A stretch of DNA of 19,808 bases from a virus (lineage: Duplodnaviria; Heunggongvirae; Uroviricota; Caudoviricetes). The stretch is taken from the IMG/VR virus record IMGVR_UViG_2617270952_000001; one strand, written 5' to 3'. Below, piece by piece: positions 1 to 12,157 of the stretch; within the stretch, counting starts at the first letter, position 1, and each line of letters begins with the position of its first letter. Under the pieces are notes generated by a model. It did no database searches. It had not been told where the DNA came from and was given only the letters and a program-made list of their open reading frames with translations. Made by a program: the position numbers and the translations under genes.

Positions 1-215
1 AACGCTGAAAAATGAGAGCCTGAGCCACTATCGTTTTAATAACCGGGATGAAGCCATCTCAGTAATACGGGAATACATTGAGATTTTCTACAATCGTCAG
101 CGTCGTCACTCTCGTCTGGGGAATATCTCCCCGGCAGCCTTCAGGGAAAAATATCATCAGATGGCTGCTTAAAAAAAGAACAAATGGTAGTGTCCGCTAT
201 TGCCAGTACACCTCA
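1..215 (+). mobile_element. Right end of an IS3-family insertion sequence (IS600-like); the element continues left of the window
   Basis: The transposase tail ends at 172. The terminal sequence ...CAGTACACCTCA ends in the IS3-family-typical CA at 215 (complement TGAGGTGTACTGGCAATAGCGG...). The IS600 assignment is from memory and is not verified. Confidence 0.8.
2..172 (+). CDS. IS3-family transposase OrfB, C-terminal 56 aa (5' partial at window edge)
   Basis: The frame reads TLKNESLSHYRFNNRDEAISVIREYIEIFYNRQRRHSRLGNISPAAFREKYHQMAA* (TAA 170-172). The YNRxRRHS...SP..F tail is characteristic of rve-type IS3 OrfB proteins. Confidence 0.85.
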   Translation, partial: TLKNESLSHYRFNNRDEAISVIREYIEIFYNRQRRHSRLGNISPAAFREKYHQMAA

Positions 216-646
216 CGCTTCCAGTCTTCGCGGTCGTTGTCGATAACTTCTTTTTTTGCCCAGCGATGGATGCTGCCGTCAATGTTTCCGGCATCCACAT
301 CACTAGGCCAGAGAGCGTAGGCCAGTTCGTCATCCAGTGTTTTCCATGTCTGCTTGTATTCGCGATGAATGGCAGCAATGACCGGGCTGATTTTTCCTGT
401 TGAATTTTCAGTGTACTGTTGATTGGCTCTGGCGCGGGCGAGATCAACAACAGACGTGTATTTTCCGGTTTCCTTGCGTTCACCTTCGCGACGTTTTTTC
501 CAGATGCGCATCTCTGCCTGAATTTCGGGCCATTTAGCACCAGGAATACATTTATGCTTAACCCACCCAATGGCGTGCAACTTAAGCTCCGGATACGGGT
601 TATTCCCCTCTGAACAGGCGCGTAAGGACTGGCAAAACGCCCGCAA
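216..646 (-). pseudogene. Phage-type hypothetical protein, 3' end removed by the IS insertion at 215/216
   Basis: The 149-aa ORF 197..646 has protein-like composition (...AAIHREYKQTWKTLDDELAYALWPSDVDAGNIDGSIHRWAKKEVIDNDREDW). Its last 6 codons and stop lie inside the IS terminus. The ORF-track start is a TTG at 646, and the first ATG is at 511. I did not recognise the family. Confidence 0.45.
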
Positions 647-836
647 AAAACTCTCGAGGGCAAAGGTGAAGAAACCTGCTGTGGTTGATCCGGACCTTAT
701 CTGGTCATCACCTGACGGAGAAATACGTCGCTACGACAGTCGCCTAAACATAATCTGTCGCGAGTGCCGGAAGAGCGAAGTTATGCAGCGCATACTGGCT
801 TTCTATCAGGGTAATTTTCAGGACGTGGCGCAGTGA
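570..836 (+). CDS. Small hypothetical protein translationally coupled to the methyltransferase gene; start uncertain (ATG 570 or GTG 665 behind GAGGG)
   Basis: Its stop TGA 834-836 overlaps the GTG start at 833 of the next gene (GTGA). The 5' part overlaps the divergent ORF 216..646, so the shorter version 665..836 may be the real one. Confidence 0.4.
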   Translation: MACNLSSGYGLFPSEQARKDWQNARKKLSRAKVKKPAVVDPDLIWSSPDGEIRRYDSRLNIICRECRKSEVMQRILAFYQGNFQDVAQ

Positions 837-1322
837 GTGCACCGGCAACCATTCTTGATATGTGCTGTGGCAGCCGCATGTTCTGGTTCGATAAGTCTGA
901 CGAACGGGCGATATTCAGCGATATCAGAAAAGAAGGATACACATTACGCAATGGGAGACGCTTGATTATCAGCCCTGACATTATCGCAGATTTTCGTGCA
1001 TTATCATTTGCAGACGCATCTTTTTCGATGGTTGTATTAGACCCTCCGCATCTTGAGAGTGTTGGTGATAACGCCTGGATGGGAAAGAAATATGGACGGC
1101 TGAATAAAGATGCCTGGCGTGATGATTCGCGACAGAAATTTAAAGAAGCCTTTCGGGTGTTGAGGCCGCACGGCGTTCTGATTTTTTAATGGAATGAAAC
1201 GCAAATACCGGTAAGCCAGATTCTGGCACTGACAGACAGAAAACCTGTTATCTGTCAACGAACAGGGAAAAAACGATAAAACCCACTGGATTATTTTTAT
1301 GAAAGAGGCATCCAGTGAGTAG
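833..1322 (+). pseudogene. SAM-dependent DNA methyltransferase (DPPH catalytic motif), inactivated by an in-frame TAA and a frameshift
   Basis: ILDMCCGSRMFWFDK (SAM-binding-like) and VVLDPPH (N6A/N4C methyltransferase motif IV) are present. TAA at 1187-1189 interrupts ...GVLIF*WNETQIPVSQILALTD.... The frame then breaks in the A-run at 1268-1273, and the shifted frame reads GKNDKTHWIIFMKEASSE* (stop 1320-1322). Confidence 0.7.
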
Positions 1323-1451
1323 ATTCGTAAGGCTACAGATACGTATATCTGAATAATTAAATTCAGTTCTGTAAATAAAATTTAATCCTTAACCGGATGG
1401 ATTTCTGCACCCTCAGAACATCAGGAGGCCGCCCGAAAGGGCGGTAGTGAA

Positions 1452-1634
1452 ATGCGAAAGTTCAAAATTATTATTGAAACGGGAATAGCTGGTGGAGATT
1501 TTGAGGATGTATTCGAAGTGGACGATGACGCAACACCTGAGGAAATTCATGACGGAGCATAAGAAATTTTCTTTAACTACTGCAATTACTCATACCACGA
1601 AATAAAAGACGATGAGGAAGAACAAAGTGGCTGA
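1452..1634 (+). pseudogene. Small acidic phage protein (about 60 codons) interrupted by an in-frame TAA at 1560-1562
   Basis: MRKFKIIIETGIAGGDFEDVFEVDDDATPEEIHDGA*EIFFNYCNYSYHEIKDDEEEQSG*. AGGAGG lies at 1423-1428 with a hairpin before the ATG. The frame stays open and protein-like after the stop. Confidence 0.5.
1488..1495 (+). other. Chi site (GCTGGTGG)
   Basis: Exact 8-mer match read directly from the sequence. Confidence 0.9.
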
Positions 1635-1803
1635 TTTTTGTTCAGCTAAATATAACATCAGTTTTGAAGAGCGGGATGAACTATTAATGGACTATGGTGA
1701 GTTACGCGGTGGAAGTGCTGCTGATGTCGAATCCTAGCGTGATGACTATGAAGCGGGAAAAACTCCGGTCGAAGCATATTGTGATGAGTGGGGCGATGAA
1801 TGA
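1627..1803 (+). pseudogene. Small phage ORF interrupted by an in-frame TAG at 1735-1737
   Basis: GTG 1627 sits behind GAGGAAG and overlaps the preceding stop (GTGGCTGA). An alternative ATG is at 1612. The frame reads VADFCSAKYNISFEERDELLMDYGELRGGSAADVES*RDDYEAGKTPVEAYCDEWGDE*, and its stop overlaps the next start (ATGA). Confidence 0.45.
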
Positions 1804-2087
1804 GCGAGATTAATTATCAGGAAGGGCATGAAACGGCGGGGGAAGCAAAACCAGTGGCATGGCGATATCGCTACGTGAAAAAAGGCGTTACGGACTTTCA
1901 GGGGAAGTAGTGGTCTGGTGACTGGAAATATGTACCGAAAAAAGAGGATTGTAACGACAGGCCGAACTATCAAATTCAGGCCTTATTCACTGCCTCACCA
2001 GTCCCAGTTACATCAGAAGAACTGGTTAAAGCTGTGCACTTTTATGAACAACTAAAACGCGAAAATCCACCAACATCCGGCAACTAG
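1800..2087 (+). pseudogene. Small phage ORF interrupted by an in-frame TAG at 1908-1910
   Basis: MSEINYQEGHETAGEAKPVAWRYRYVKKGVTDFQGK*WSGDWKYVPKKEDCNDRPNYQIQALFTASPVPVTSEELVKAVHFYEQLKRENPPTSGN* (stop 2085-2087). Confidence 0.5.
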
Positions 2088-2341
2088 ATTAATGGATTAA
2101 CTATGTCGGTTAAACGACCAGCCAACTGAAAAAGCGGAAACCTGATTACAGGTTGCCAGATAAGGCAATGAGCTACCTGGCGCGGAACGGACTGATAAGT
2201 ATGGGGAATGTTTTACGATGAACCTTTAGACTAAAGAGTTTGTAACGCTATGTAAGTGATTTTTTCTGGTTTAGATATTTATATGTCCGGCCAAATTGAG
2301 GTGTGTTTAAATGTAATTGCACATTGATTGTAGGAGGAATA

Positions 2342-2521
2342 ATGAAAAACGCATTGCAGTTTTTGTTTGTTGCGTTCTGGTTGTTCGCATCATGTATGCC
2401 CATCATCTTCACAGCAAGGTATATGGAAAAAGTTGATGTTTTGATATTAATATTTGGATATATAAATGCCCTTTTTTTAGGGGTGTTCATGGCGGTCATG
2501 TGCATTGAATACTGGCGGTAA
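2342..2521 (+). CDS. Small (59 aa) predicted two-helix membrane protein
   Basis: AGGAGG at 2332-2337 precedes ATG 2342. The protein is MKNALQFLFVAFWLFASCMPIIFTARYMEKVDVLILIFGYINALFLGVFMAVMCIEYWR, with two hydrophobic stretches. Confidence 0.55.
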   Translation: MKNALQFLFVAFWLFASCMPIIFTARYMEKVDVLILIFGYINALFLGVFMAVMCIEYWR

Positions 2522-2610: not shown

Positions 2611-2795
2611 GGGTGCTTGAGGCTATCTGCCTCGGGCATGGACACCAACGGCAGATAGAGAAAAGCCCCAGTTAACATTACGCGTCCTGCAAGACGCTTA
2701 ACATTAATCTGAGGCCAATTTCATGCTAGACACATGTAGGTTAGCCTCTTACGTGCCGAAAGGCACGGAGAAGCAGGCTATTGTTAACACCAAGC
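2611..2795 (+). pseudogene. hok/mok-type type I toxin locus, 5' half (leader, mok-like ORF, SD and first codons), cut by the IS
   Basis: The 15-nt string GGAGAAGCAGGCTAT (2767-2781) is identical to the SD/start region of hokD at 6056-6070, but is followed by T (ATT) instead of G (ATG). The leader resembles plasmid R1 hok mRNA as I recall it (GCTTGAGGCTaTCTGCCTC, GGCAGAtAGA, AGCCCC, ATGcTAGaCACAT, TAGCCTCTTAC). The mok-like ORF ATG 2723 now runs into the IS and stops at 2798-2800. Confidence 0.6.
2658..2735 (-). ncRNA. Sok-like antisense RNA (approximate ends)
   Basis: The minus strand reads ...GTGTCTAGCATGAAATTGGCCTCAGATTAATGTTAAGCGTCTTGCAGGACGCGTAATGTTAACTGGGGCTTTTCTCT. It is complementary to the mok start region, contains a hairpin (GCGTC-TTGCAG-GACGC), and ends in a U-rich tail in the position of R1 Sok (...ACGGGGCUAUCUUCUUU, from memory). 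Confidence 0.4.
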
Positions 2796-4222
2796 TGTAA
2801 TGTCCCCTTTGAACCATTCTAAAATGTCCCCAGACAATTCTCTGGGGGATTTTTCATGATCAAAGAGACTGTTACGATGAGTCATAAGGAACTCCACCGA
2901 CTTCAGATTATTCAGGAACAAGCTGCGGCACGCATTGGCATTTCTATTCGGCAGGTTAAACGTCTGGTGCAACGGTATAGAAATGAAGGGCCTTCTGGTC
3001 TGGTTTCCCACCGACGTGGAAAGCGTCCTAATAATTCCTTTTCTACTGAATTCAGAGCAACAGTAATTTCACTCCTCAAAGGCCGTTACGCTGATTTTGG
3101 ACCTACGTTTGCGTGCGAAAAATTGCGCGAGATACACGGTTTATCTTTATCCGTTGAAACTCTCAGAAAGTGGATGATAGAAGAGGGGTTATGGCGTGAA
3201 CGCCGTCGTAAAATTGCCCGTATATATCAACGCCGCATGCGACGACCATCTTACGGTGAACTGATCCAGATTGATGGCTCACCTCATGACTGGTTTGAAA
3301 ATCGAGGCCCCAGATGTACACTGATCGTTTTCATTGATGATGCCACCAGTGCGTTGATGGCGTTGCGTTTTGTGCCTGCTGAAACAACCCGGGCTTACAT
3401 GGAAACCCTCCGGGGTTACCTTAATGATCATGGCGTACCGCTCGCTCTCTACTCTGATAGACACAGTATATTCAGGGTAAATAACCCAGAGCGGGAAGGT
3501 GAGCTGACCCAGTTCACTCGTGCGATAAAGACACTGGGCATCGAGCCAATCCATGCCAACAGCCCGCAGGCAAAAGGGCGGGTAGAGCGCGCCAATCAGA
3601 CACTACAGGACAGGCTGGTCAAAGAAATGCGGCTTCAGAATATCAGTGATATTGAAACAGCAAATGCATGGTTGCCGACCTTTATTGAAGCCTATAACAA
3701 CCGGTTCGCTACGTCGCCTCGTACTACTGATAATGCTCATCTTGATGTGCACCATTCTGAAGAGGAACTGGGTTATATCTTCAGCCTACAGGCGAAGCGC
3801 GTTCTGTCTAAAAATCTCACTTTCCAGTACAAAAGCAGTGCGTTTCAGGTACGCAGTGAGGGCCGGGGATATCGACTTAGGCATTCGGTTGTTACTGTAT
3901 GCGAGAACTTTGACGGTGAAATTAACGTTCTGTATGACGGGAAAGCGCTGGGCTGGGAAAAGTATGTTGATGGCCCGGAGCCTATACCACTGGATGATGA
4001 AAAGAGTGTCCATGAACGAGTGGATAATGCCCGTATTGATTTACGCTCAAAATACTATGTTAAACCTAAAGCTGACCATCCCTGGCTTACGCGCCGAACG
4101 CAAAGTCATCAGCAAGTTAAGCCCCCGAAGTTACCTAAAAAGAAGCCTGATCCCGATAAAAAAGATTGAAACCAAGATCGATTCGGTTGAGTGCATATCC
4201 ATTCATAGGGTAGATTCTTAAG
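2795..4222 (+). mobile_element. Insertion sequence (~1.43 kb) with a single rve/DDE transposase, inserted in the hok-like gene; ends uncertain by about 3 nt
   Basis: Imperfect terminal inverted repeats: TGTAATGTCCCCTTTGAA (2796-2813) against the complement of 4202-4219, AAGAATCTACCCTATGAA (12/18). AAG occurs on both sides (2792-2794 and 4220-4222). hok-like sequence stops at about 2795 and resumes at about 4220. Confidence 0.7.
2856..4169 (+). CDS. DDE (rve, integrase-core) transposase with N-terminal helix-turn-helix; IS481/ISNCY-like
   Basis: The 437-aa ORF has an HTH region (IGISIRQVKRLVQRYRNEG) and a candidate catalytic triad in IQIDGSPHDW, LYSDRHSIF and GRVERANQTLQD. GGGGGA lies 6 nt upstream of ATG 2856. 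The family call is from general resemblance only. Confidence 0.9.
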   Translation: MIKETVTMSHKELHRLQIIQEQAAARIGISIRQVKRLVQRYRNEGPSGLVSHRRGKRPNNSFSTEFRATVISLLKGRYADFGPTFACEKLREIHGLSLSVETLRKWMIEEGLWRERRRKIARIYQRRMRRPSYGELIQIDGSPHDWFENRGPRCTLIVFIDDATSALMALRFVPAETTRAYMETLRGYLNDHGVPLALYSDRHSIFRVNNPEREGELTQFTRAIKTLGIEPIHANSPQAKGRVERANQTLQDRLVKEMRLQNISDIETANAWLPTFIEAYNNRFATSPRTTDNAHLDVHHSEEELGYIFSLQAKRVLSKNLTFQYKSSAFQVRSEGRGYRLRHSVVTVCENFDGEINVLYDGKALGWEKYVDGPEPIPLDDEKSVHERVDNARIDLRSKYYVKPKADHPWLTRRTQSHQQVKPPKLPKKKPDPDKKD

Positions 4223-8662: not shown

Positions 8663-8716
8663 TTGCTTCATATGTTCAACTATGCGTTAATGATTGCGTC
8701 GGTTTGAAGAACAGAC
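8663..8716 (+). promoter_or_regulatory. cspB promoter and cold-box at the start of a long 5' UTR
   Basis: TTGCTT (8663-8668), a 17-nt spacer, then GTTAAT (8686-8691), then GGTTTGAAGAACAGAC (8701-8716). This parallels the cspA GGTTTGACGTACAGAC cold box. GCCGAAAGGC (8830-8839) lies upstream of the SD, as in cspA. Confidence 0.6.
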
Positions 8717-8858
8717 GATATACGAAGTAGTTTACTAAAGCAGTTCTCATTTCAGGTGTTATTCACTTATTCCTTCTTTGAGTCTCTCCAATTAAGTACG
8801 AAGTCGTTTCTGTTATGCAAACCATTTATGCCGAAAGGCTCAAGTTAAGGAATGTAGA

Positions 8859-9074
8859 ATGTCAAATAAAATGACTGGTTTAGTAAAATGGTTTAACGCT
8901 GATAAAGGTTTCGGCTTTATTTCTCCTGTTGATGGTAGTAAAGATGTGTTTGTGCATTTTTCTGCGATTCAGAATGATAATTATCGAACCTTATTTGAAG
9001 GTCAAAAGGTTACCTTCTCTATAGAGAGTGGTGCTAAAGGTCCTGCAGCAGCAAATGTCATCATTACTGATTAA
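8859..9074 (+). CDS. cspB: CspB cold-shock protein
   Basis: The 71-aa [38 protein letters not shown]... carries RNP1/RNP2 motifs and is recognised as K-12 CspB. Confidence 0.95.
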
Positions 9075-9185
9075 AATTCATCGCTCGTCTGTATACGATA
9101 ACGAAGAAGGCTGATGCCTGAGTAGAGATACGGACAGAGTAGTGAATATTGGATCTCTTTAATAAAAAGTAAGGAGGTCCAATAC

Positions 9186-11565: not shown

Positions 11566-11616
11566 TTGCTATGGGTGGTTAATCATGCGTTAATGGTGTT
11601 CTGGTTTGTTACAAAT
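11566..11616 (+). promoter_or_regulatory. cspI promoter and cold-box-like element
   Basis: TTGCTA (11566-11571), a 17-nt spacer, then GTTAAT (11589-11594), then GGTTTGTTACAAAT (11603-11616). This is the same architecture as upstream of cspB. Confidence 0.55.
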
Positions 11617-11745
11617 TTATCTGAAGCAGTCATTGTTATAATTTTATTATTTGTACCTCTTGAGATTTCCTTGTTGGTTTTTCTCTCTGATATTTTTTTT
11701 CGGACCATTCTGCCCAAGGGCTAATTTCTTCAAAAGGTAATAATT

Positions 11746-11958
11746 ATGTCTAACAAAATGACTGGTTTAGTGAAATGGTTTAACCCTGAAAAAGGTTTTG
11801 GTTTCATCACGCCGAAAGATGGCAGCAAAGATGTGTTTGTCCATTTCTCAGCAATTCAGAGCAACGATTTCAAAACATTAACTGAGAATCAGGAAGTTGA
11901 ATTTGGTATTGAGAACGGACCTAAAGGTCCTGCCGCTGTTCATGTAGTGGCGCTTTGA
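11746..11958 (+). CDS. cspI: CspI cold-shock protein
   Basis: The 70-aa [45 protein letters not shown]... is recognised as K-12 CspI. Confidence 0.95.
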
Positions 11959-11968
11959 GGTAGACAAT

Positions 11969-12157
11969 ATTACAAACCATATTCACTTTAGATGCCCGTG
12001 TTGTCATGGTTCCCAGTATAGAACATCATCTTTTGATGTTTCTGACATGAATCCTTTCGGGGCAAAATGTATCTTTTGTAAATCAATGATGATTACATTT
12101 GATAATATTTCACAATACTTAAATGCCAGCCGTCTGTCGTTGGATTTAAAAAAGTGA
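11969..12157 (+). CDS. Zinc-ribbon small protein ORF lacking a canonical start (possible ATT start or start-loss pseudogene)
   Basis: The frame is open from 11948 and reads (I)TNHIHFRCPCCHGSQYRTSSFDVSDMNPFGAKCIFCKSMMITFDNISQYLNASRLSLDLKK* (TGA 12155-12157). CxxC...CxxC is present. GAGG (11957-11960) lies 8 nt before ATT 11969, and the first ATG is codon 25 counting from ATT 11969, downstream of the first CxxC. A terminator follows. Confidence 0.4.
   Translation: MTNHIHFRCPCCHGSQYRTSSFDVSDMNPFGAKCIFCKSMMITFDNISQYLNASRLSLDLKK

Follow-up and report, generated by a model that had tools for sequence, protein, structure and literature searches.

Gene content and prophage context

The window, by which we mean the whole 19,808-nt stretch of DNA that was analysed, matches Qin-type prophages with at least 99% identity across 91-94% of its length. 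The block considered here follows a remnant of a DUF977 gene and consists of an orphan DNA methyltransferase gene and a module of three small genes preceded by a conserved leader (Table 1). Upstream of this block, near-identical loci carry dicC, a ydaT-like gene, the replication gene O and a DUF977 (LygF) gene; downstream they carry an IS, ydfW, flxA and ydfV, with rspA/rspB adjoining. The Qin locus markers rspA/rspB, dicC, ydfW, flxA and ydfV were all found in three of these loci (L001, L003 and L023). Given that these neighbours (dicC, O and DUF977; ydfW, flxA and ydfV; rspA/rspB) are those of the Qin locus, the block belongs to the Qin cryptic prophage. It makes up the accessory region of a lambda-like phage, flanked on one side by the replication genes and on the other by the gene for the late-gene activator (antiterminator Q).

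Qin has been described as a grounded prophage, carried by 48% of Escherichia and Shigella strains, that gathers mutations, IS insertions and deletions (PMC6379469). The chromosomal locus and flanking genes of the window are the same as those of Qin (Kim), the cryptic lambdoid prophage of K-12 (PMC6379469); however, the series of pseudogenes described below is seen only in longer Qin variants (such as those of W, ATCC 8739, IAI39, 042 and ECOR13). Thousands of E. coli records give nucleotide matches to the block, whereas K-12-derived records match just the first 37 bases of the block query, which indicates that K-12 is without the block.

Table 1. Features of the interrupted block, in window coordinates
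Feature	Position	Strand	Evidence
DUF977 (LygF-like) gene, C-terminal remnant	570-836	+	Pfam DUF977, E=6e-15, profile positions 62-134 of 134
Phage orphan DNA methyltransferase pseudogene, DPPH motif	833-1322	+	phrog_954, E=5e-80
Conserved leader of the ORF1-3 module	1349-1451	+	Homology with other prophages begins at window 1349 (query position 790)
ORF1, DUF7167 pseudogene (60 codons when intact)	1452-1634	+	Pfam DUF7167, E=1e-13; phrog_1997
ORF2, pseudogene of a 58-codon acidic protein of an unknown-function family	1627-1803	+	phrog_519, E=2e-13
ORF3, phrog_660 pseudogene of an unknown-function family (119-171 aa when intact)	1800-2221	+	phrog_660; intact homologs

The 5' part of the DUF977 gene has been lost in this strain, where what is left of it is fused to an exonuclease fragment at ~587. 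Start/stop overlaps typical of coupled genes, which a previous reading of this DNA from its sequence only (hereafter the sequence-only reading) had described as preserved, are indeed in place: the GTGA at 833-836, in which the TGA of the DUF977 remnant (834-836) overlaps the methyltransferase start, GTGGCTGA at 1627-1634 and ATGA at 1800-1803. Between the methyltransferase gene and ORF1, a mosaic junction is seen at the palindrome CTGAATAATTAAATTCAG (1349-1366), and alignment together with folding indicates a GC hairpin with a GAAA loop at ~1430-1446, between an AGGAGG and the ATG at 1452. When positions 600-2900 were scanned, promoter-like sites were no commoner than in shuffled sequences; terminator-like sites in the same interval numbered 6 against 1.9 expected, and none of them bears on the stops.

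Lesions in the methyltransferase gene

Intact phrog_954 proteins of ~160 aa are encoded by a Klebsiella phage and by an E. coli plasmid, with relatives in many Enterobacterales and in Pseudomonas; a sequence search found no solved structure for the family. The window copy shows 73-89% DNA identity to the plasmid-borne WP_000172331.1 and to QBP07693.1 of Klebsiella phage ST846-OXA48phi9.2, with which it shares the length class of ~160 aa, the DPPH motif and a 4-nt overlap after an accessory gene. Unlike these, it has a nonsense codon in place of K119 and a +1 frameshift, along with 11 missense changes that are specific to its lineage. The nonsense codon, TAA at 1187-1189, replaces a lysine (AAA>TAA) that is retained, as AAA or AAG, in the relatives L006, L015, L016 and L018. 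A frameshift had also been recognized in the sequence-only reading, but was placed inside the A-run at 1268-1273; alignment to the intact copies in L015, L016 and L018 reveals that it is instead an extra G in the adjoining G-run at 1265-1267 (GG>GGG), and that the ancestral stop is the TAG at 1320-1322.

Outside E. coli, the Qin-type methyltransferase was found only in Shigella flexneri, with the same stops, and all other species have diverged copies with 53-81% protein identity. The family has also been broken independently elsewhere, namely in an O157-type prophage (L006), where W94 has become a stop (W94*), in Salmonella phage Oslo, whose copy is frameshifted, and in AH21, where IS1 has inserted.

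Lesions in the small-gene module

Intact versions of the DUF7167/phrog_519/phrog_660 module are encoded by lambda-like phages that are active or inducible, for instance by phage vB_Apl-pPE4 (gp18-gp20) and by the E. coli prophages L019 and L020, with 87-93% DNA identity to the window. Their gene order and overlapping start/stop junctions are identical to those of the window, yet their frames, of 58-60, 58 and 119 codons, are open, and the codons that they carry at the positions of the window's stops are AAA, TGG, and CAG or CCG.

In ORF1, the TAA at 1560-1562 replaces K37 (AAA>TAA), a codon that reads AAA in L004, L005, L008, L009 and pPE4; the first four of these have intact 60-aa DUF7167 alleles. 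In ORF2, the TAG at 1735-1737 replaces Trp37 (TGG>TAG), which remains TGG in L004, L005, L009 and pPE4, all with intact 58-aa alleles (gp19 in the case of pPE4). The ORF2 of L008 has an 8-nt deletion, and in one of the near-identical Qin loci (L003) the ORF2 stop codon has become TAA (TAG>TAA). The start of ORF2 had been left ambiguous between GTG at 1627 and ATG at 1612. This is settled by the comparison with intact relatives: position 1627 is homologous to their ATG start, which was changed to GTG in the Qin lineage, and the ATG at 1612 is found only in that lineage.

The first stop of ORF3, TAG at 1908-1910, is codon 37 and has CAG as its one-step ancestor (CAG>TAG); the homologous codon is CAG (Q) in L019 and L020, CCG (P) in pPE4 and mEp460, and CTG (L) in L022 and Av-05. 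Intact homologs are found in pPE4 (gp20), mEp460, Av-05 and L019-L022. The sequence-only reading took the gene to end at 2087; however, in an alignment with the allele of strain 55989, which encodes 171 aa, the TAG at 2085-2087 proves to be a second CAG>TAG nonsense change and the frame continues to an ancestral stop at TGA 2219-2221, in agreement with the 422-nt pseudogene of RefSeq. The alignment also reveals a 4-nt deletion near 2119 that shifts the frame. Relative to the 171-aa allele, ORF3 has further lost a middle module of ~30 codons.

The A-run at 1877-1882 of ORF3 has 5, 6, 7 or 8 A across lineages. Although its length varies between strains, phase variation at this tract can be rejected, since no tract length restores the full conserved frame: the 6-A form has the ancestral frame, as in the intact pPE4 gene, but meets the TAG at 1908, and the 8-A form opens just a non-homologous frame. 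An alternative frame of 85 aa, as annotated for the 8-A allele of phage vB_EcoS-640R1, was likewise discarded, given that the distant homologs in mEp460 and Av-05 conserve the other frame.

The ORF3 TAG at 1908 is also present in L004, L005, L008 and L009, in which ORF1 is intact and, except in L008, ORF2 is intact too, and ORF3 shows no Qin-specific differences. Hence, the ORF3 stop lies on a broadly shared haplotype, which occurs widely, including in other prophages and induced phages.

Thus all four stops first reported from the sequence (TAA 1187-1189, TAA 1560-1562, TAG 1735-1737 and TAG 1908-1910) are confirmed, and so is the claim that the frames continue past them, as homologs that are intact read through each of these positions without a change of frame. 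The sense codons hit, which the sequence-only reading had proposed to recover by alignment to intact homologs, are AAA (1187), AAA (1560), TGG (1735) and CAG (1908). Each stop differs by a single base from a sense codon used by intact relatives, the residues found at these positions being K, K, W, Q/P/L and, at 2085, Q. Together, these alignments show that the methyltransferase, DUF7167, 58-codon and phrog_660 genes are pseudogenes whose stops arose by single-base substitutions. The impression that there was little other visible damage did not survive the comparison, which uncovered the +1 G, the ATG>GTG start change, the TAG at 2085, the 4-nt deletion, the deletion of the ORF3 module and an excess of missense changes.

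Substitution patterns and selective constraint

The ratio of nonsense to missense and synonymous differences, suggested earlier as a check, was computed for the Qin branch, with fixed differences polarised by parsimony from few sequences of a mosaic, recombining gene pool: the methyltransferase gene has accumulated 11 missense, 5 synonymous and 1 nonsense change, ORF1 3 missense, 2 synonymous and 1 nonsense, and ORF2 8 missense plus the start change, 5-6 synonymous and 1 nonsense. What emerges is that missense changes are in excess in the Qin lineage, and that the nonsense count is at the neutral expectation. On these counts, the methyltransferase has 12 non-synonymous to 5 synonymous changes on the Qin branch versus 3 to 11 in the intact sister clade (p=0.011), and some of the Qin missense changes strike residues on which the copies of the Salmonella and Klebsiella phages agree. 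When the methyltransferase, ORF1 and ORF2 are pooled, the Qin lineage has 25 non-synonymous to 13 synonymous changes versus 16 to 27 for intact sequences (p=0.014). The signal of relaxed constraint in ORF1 and ORF2 alone is not significant (p=0.16); their intact alleles have 13 missense and 16 synonymous polymorphisms. Furthermore, the Qin-specific divergence of ORF2 (15 changes in ~110 nt) may in part reflect an old divergent allele and not decay. The substitution counts are consistent with decay but fall short of proof; taken at face value, these comparisons indicate that the Qin lineage is under relaxed selective constraint.

The density of stops, four nonsense codons in 1.25 kb, had been regarded as unusual, but is not so once it is set against the other changes. 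Stops are expected to make up 3.7-4.8% of random single-base changes in these sequences, and the 3 nonsense changes among ~38 lineage-specific substitutions are well within what random mutation would deliver, P(>=3)=0.16-0.28. The stops also have no shared context: TAA and TAG are mixed, the next base is G, T, C and T, respectively, and there is no gene for a suppressor tRNA, or indeed any tRNA gene, anywhere in the window.

Prevalence and age of the stops

The stops in the methyltransferase, ORF1 and ORF2 are present in all Qin copies examined. We searched complete E. coli genomes for a pre-stop Qin allele with a query in which these three Qin-specific stops had been reverted, a design that an allele with one reversion and one extra SNP would escape; the best match, with 99.5% identity, had all three stops present. 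This query recovered 398 E. coli records with at least 99% identity, including W, ATCC 8739, IAI39, 042, CE10 and UMNK88, so that ~400 complete E. coli genomes, which belong to several phylogroups, have the same alleles. These stops recur in a Shigella flexneri genome, together with a private 1-nt deletion. Since they have become fixed in Shigella as well as throughout the phylogroups of E. coli, the stops predate the spread of this Qin lineage. Recurrence on this scale also disposes of sequencing or assembly error, the stops being identical in hundreds of independently assembled genomes, a phage record and Shigella; that they are mistakes in a single record has a vanishingly small probability.

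Decay of the block is still running. It is visible in the TAG>TAA change in L003, the changes in the length of the A-run, the 1-nt deletion, the IS1 insertion in AH21 and the partial deletions of other strains.

The shared position of the stops in the small genes

The starts of ORF1, ORF2 and ORF3 at 1452, 1627 and 1800 place the first stop at codon 37 in each, an offset of 108 nt, exactly as the sequence-only reading had noticed. It had called this identity unusual, and in nominal terms it is improbable: under a one-hit model, a shared codon index would be expected with a probability of ~1.5% for ORF1 and ORF2, and of 1-4e-4 for all three. As a sign of one process, however, it fails. The codon-37 mutations differ in type (A>T, G>A and C>T), the ORF3 stop is on a different haplotype, and of the three stops only those of ORF1 and ORF2 are specific to Qin. 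Since the ORF3 TAG is also found in prophages in which both of the other small genes are intact, the three stops at codon 37 are separate events. The shared position looks like a post hoc coincidence, and we see no mechanism that would link codon index to mutation.

A position-specific process could in principle generate such a match, for example selection for a fixed distance of ~65 nt from the premature stop to the next start, which would tune re-initiation or polarity in the silent prophage operon, or selection for peptides of 36 residues. We give hardly any credence to such a process. Were the equal spacing to carry meaning, premature stops in coupled operons would be subject to a hitherto unrecognized constraint on their position, and nothing found here supports this.

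Probable neutral decay and its alternatives

In light of the above observations, we propose that the block is very probably a case of ordinary neutral decay, in which genes of the accessory region of Qin, a defective prophage fixed in the chromosome, have become pseudogenes. The sequence-only reading had arrived at neutral decay of a cryptic prophage block as the simplest account, and this is borne out by the Qin location, by stops that are one base from sense codons and by the relaxed constraint. The extra G, the 4-nt deletion, the start change and the missense excess that accompany the stops make up the pattern that is expected once coding selection has ceased. The genes would have lost their use in a phage that has presumably become unable to replicate and whose operon the prophage repressor would keep silent. 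Breakage of the first gene in a translationally coupled series would further deprive the genes downstream of expression. The stops in the methyltransferase, ORF1 and ORF2 probably arose on the Qin stem and were then inherited vertically in E. coli and Shigella, and the ORF3 TAG would either be older or have been brought in by recombination.

Two alternatives would give the stops a selective value. One supposes that the stops were themselves selected, since any leakage of the prophage operon would burden or poison the host with the orphan methyltransferase and the small early proteins. The module has been hit in each of its consecutive genes, as this would lead one to expect, and the independent breakage of the methyltransferase family in L006 (W94*), phage Oslo (frameshift) and AH21 (IS1) points the same way. 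Nonetheless, nonsense changes are no more frequent than neutrality predicts, missense and synonymous changes gather as they do in unconstrained sequence, and a single inactivating change in the first gene of a coupled operon would have sufficed, yet damage downstream continues. Moreover, the ORF3 pseudogene circulates in inducible phages as well, and adaptive silencing of this kind is thus, in our assessment, improbable, and none of the observations calls for it. The other alternative holds that the stops are read through, or that the short products (a methyltransferase fragment of 118 aa and peptides of 36 aa) are functional, in which case the equal length of 36 codons would stem from a selected product size or a regulatory design. 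It would account for three stops at one codon index (nominal P 1-4e-4), for their fixation in ~400 genomes and for the occasional annotation in RefSeq of the 36-aa and 118-aa fragments as proteins. Recoding is, however, at odds with the sense codons that diverged homologs have everywhere at these positions, only close alleles sharing the ORF3 TAG, as well as with the mixture of TAA and TAG in no common context and in a window devoid of a suppressor tRNA gene. Frameshifts and further stops lie past the stops, where readthrough would have to proceed, the Qin lineage shows relaxed constraint, and the ORF3 TAG is on a haplotype that differs from that of the ORF1 and ORF2 stops. In addition, the 5-, 7- and 8-A variants of ORF3 shift the frame upstream of the TAG, such that their product is not one of 36 aa. 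We accordingly consider a function for the stops or the short products to be very improbable, and neutral decay of the Qin block remains the reading that we favor.

Annotation of the decayed genes

The decay of the block is already known in the sense that RefSeq marks three of the four genes as disrupted: the methyltransferase gene as 'frameshifted; internal stop', the DUF7167 gene as 'internal stop' and ORF3, over 422 nt, as 'frameshifted; internal stop'. For ORF2 the Qin-lineage records examined have no annotated feature. RefSeq is nevertheless inconsistent, in that the same alleles are entered as pseudogenes in some cases and in others as proteins, namely a 36-aa "DUF7167 family" protein and a 118-aa "class I SAM-dependent methyltransferase". 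Such truncated entries should not pass for functional proteins. The block offers a clean, small example of the decay of a grounded prophage, the importance of which is mostly one of housekeeping. The DUF977 gene is entered as a DUF977 family protein in the L001 and L003 records, and in that of AH21 as a pseudogene lacking its N terminus.

The left end of the window and related methyltransferases

At the left end of the window (1-836), an IS3-family transposase gene, represented by its 3' end, is followed by an exonuclease fragment that is joined at ~587 to the final third of the DUF977 gene. The stretch between the exonuclease gene and DUF977, which carries immunity and replication genes (the dicA/dicC side, a ydaT-like gene and O), is deleted in this strain. 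The best match in the homology search, strain AH21, is also, among the matches listed, the only record that spans this junction from query base 1. The phrog_954 methyltransferase family has been independently inactivated in three other elements, in a different manner in each (see table).

The leader and A-run of the ORF1-3 module

The three small pseudogenes ORF1-3 are preceded by a conserved leader of the module (1349-1451), and the palindrome CTGAATAATTAAATTCAG (1349-1366) marks the exact point where homology with other prophages starts. Between an AGGAGG and the ATG at 1452 lies a GC hairpin (~1430-1446) whose loop is GAAA; its folding could therefore draw the ribosome-binding sequence near the start codon. 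In the few hairpin variants seen, pairs are broken and not compensated. Within ORF3, the A-run at 1877-1882 has 6 A; other lineages have 5, 7 or 8, and the simplest reading of this length variation is slippage within a dead gene. The 8-A form opens a non-homologous frame of 85 aa, annotated as a protein in some phage records.

A small ORF, a sok match and cspA-type leaders

The ORF at 2342-2521 may encode a genuine, unannotated small membrane protein. It is open in three phage records at 98-100% identity, in which the annotation ('hornerin' or hypothetical) is instead placed on the opposite strand, and its site is without any feature in the RefSeq loci examined; a comparison with PHROG gave no match. 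The sok match appears to represent the regulatory portion of a hok/sok killer locus. In related prophages ORF3 is followed by an intact hokD. In the window the hok side seems to have been severed by insertion of the ISNCY / ISEsa1-like transposase gene. Both cspA-type leaders fit the known cold-shock genes of Qin, namely cspB, cspI and their relatives.

Features of the window and disrupted methyltransferase genes of other elements
Feature	Location	Strand	Remarks
IS3-family transposase gene, 3' end	to ~172		
Exonuclease fragment	197 to ~600	-	
59-aa ORF	2342-2521	+	MKNALQFLFVAFW...; two hydrophobic stretches; AGGAGG 5 nt upstream of ATG
sok (CssrC)	2611-2782	+	Rfam, 104 bits
ISNCY / ISEsa1-like transposase gene	2856-4169		437-aa ORF
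cspA-type thermoregulator leader	8698-9090	+	Rfam RF01766, 159 bits
cspA-type thermoregulator leader	11600-11985	+	Rfam RF01766, 113 bits
Methyltransferase, O157-type prophage	L006 2503-2976		Trp94 stop
Methyltransferase, Salmonella phage vB_SosS_Oslo	L017 286-780		Frameshift; annotated there as shorter protein
Methyltransferase, strain AH21	L023 4274-5540		IS1 insertion
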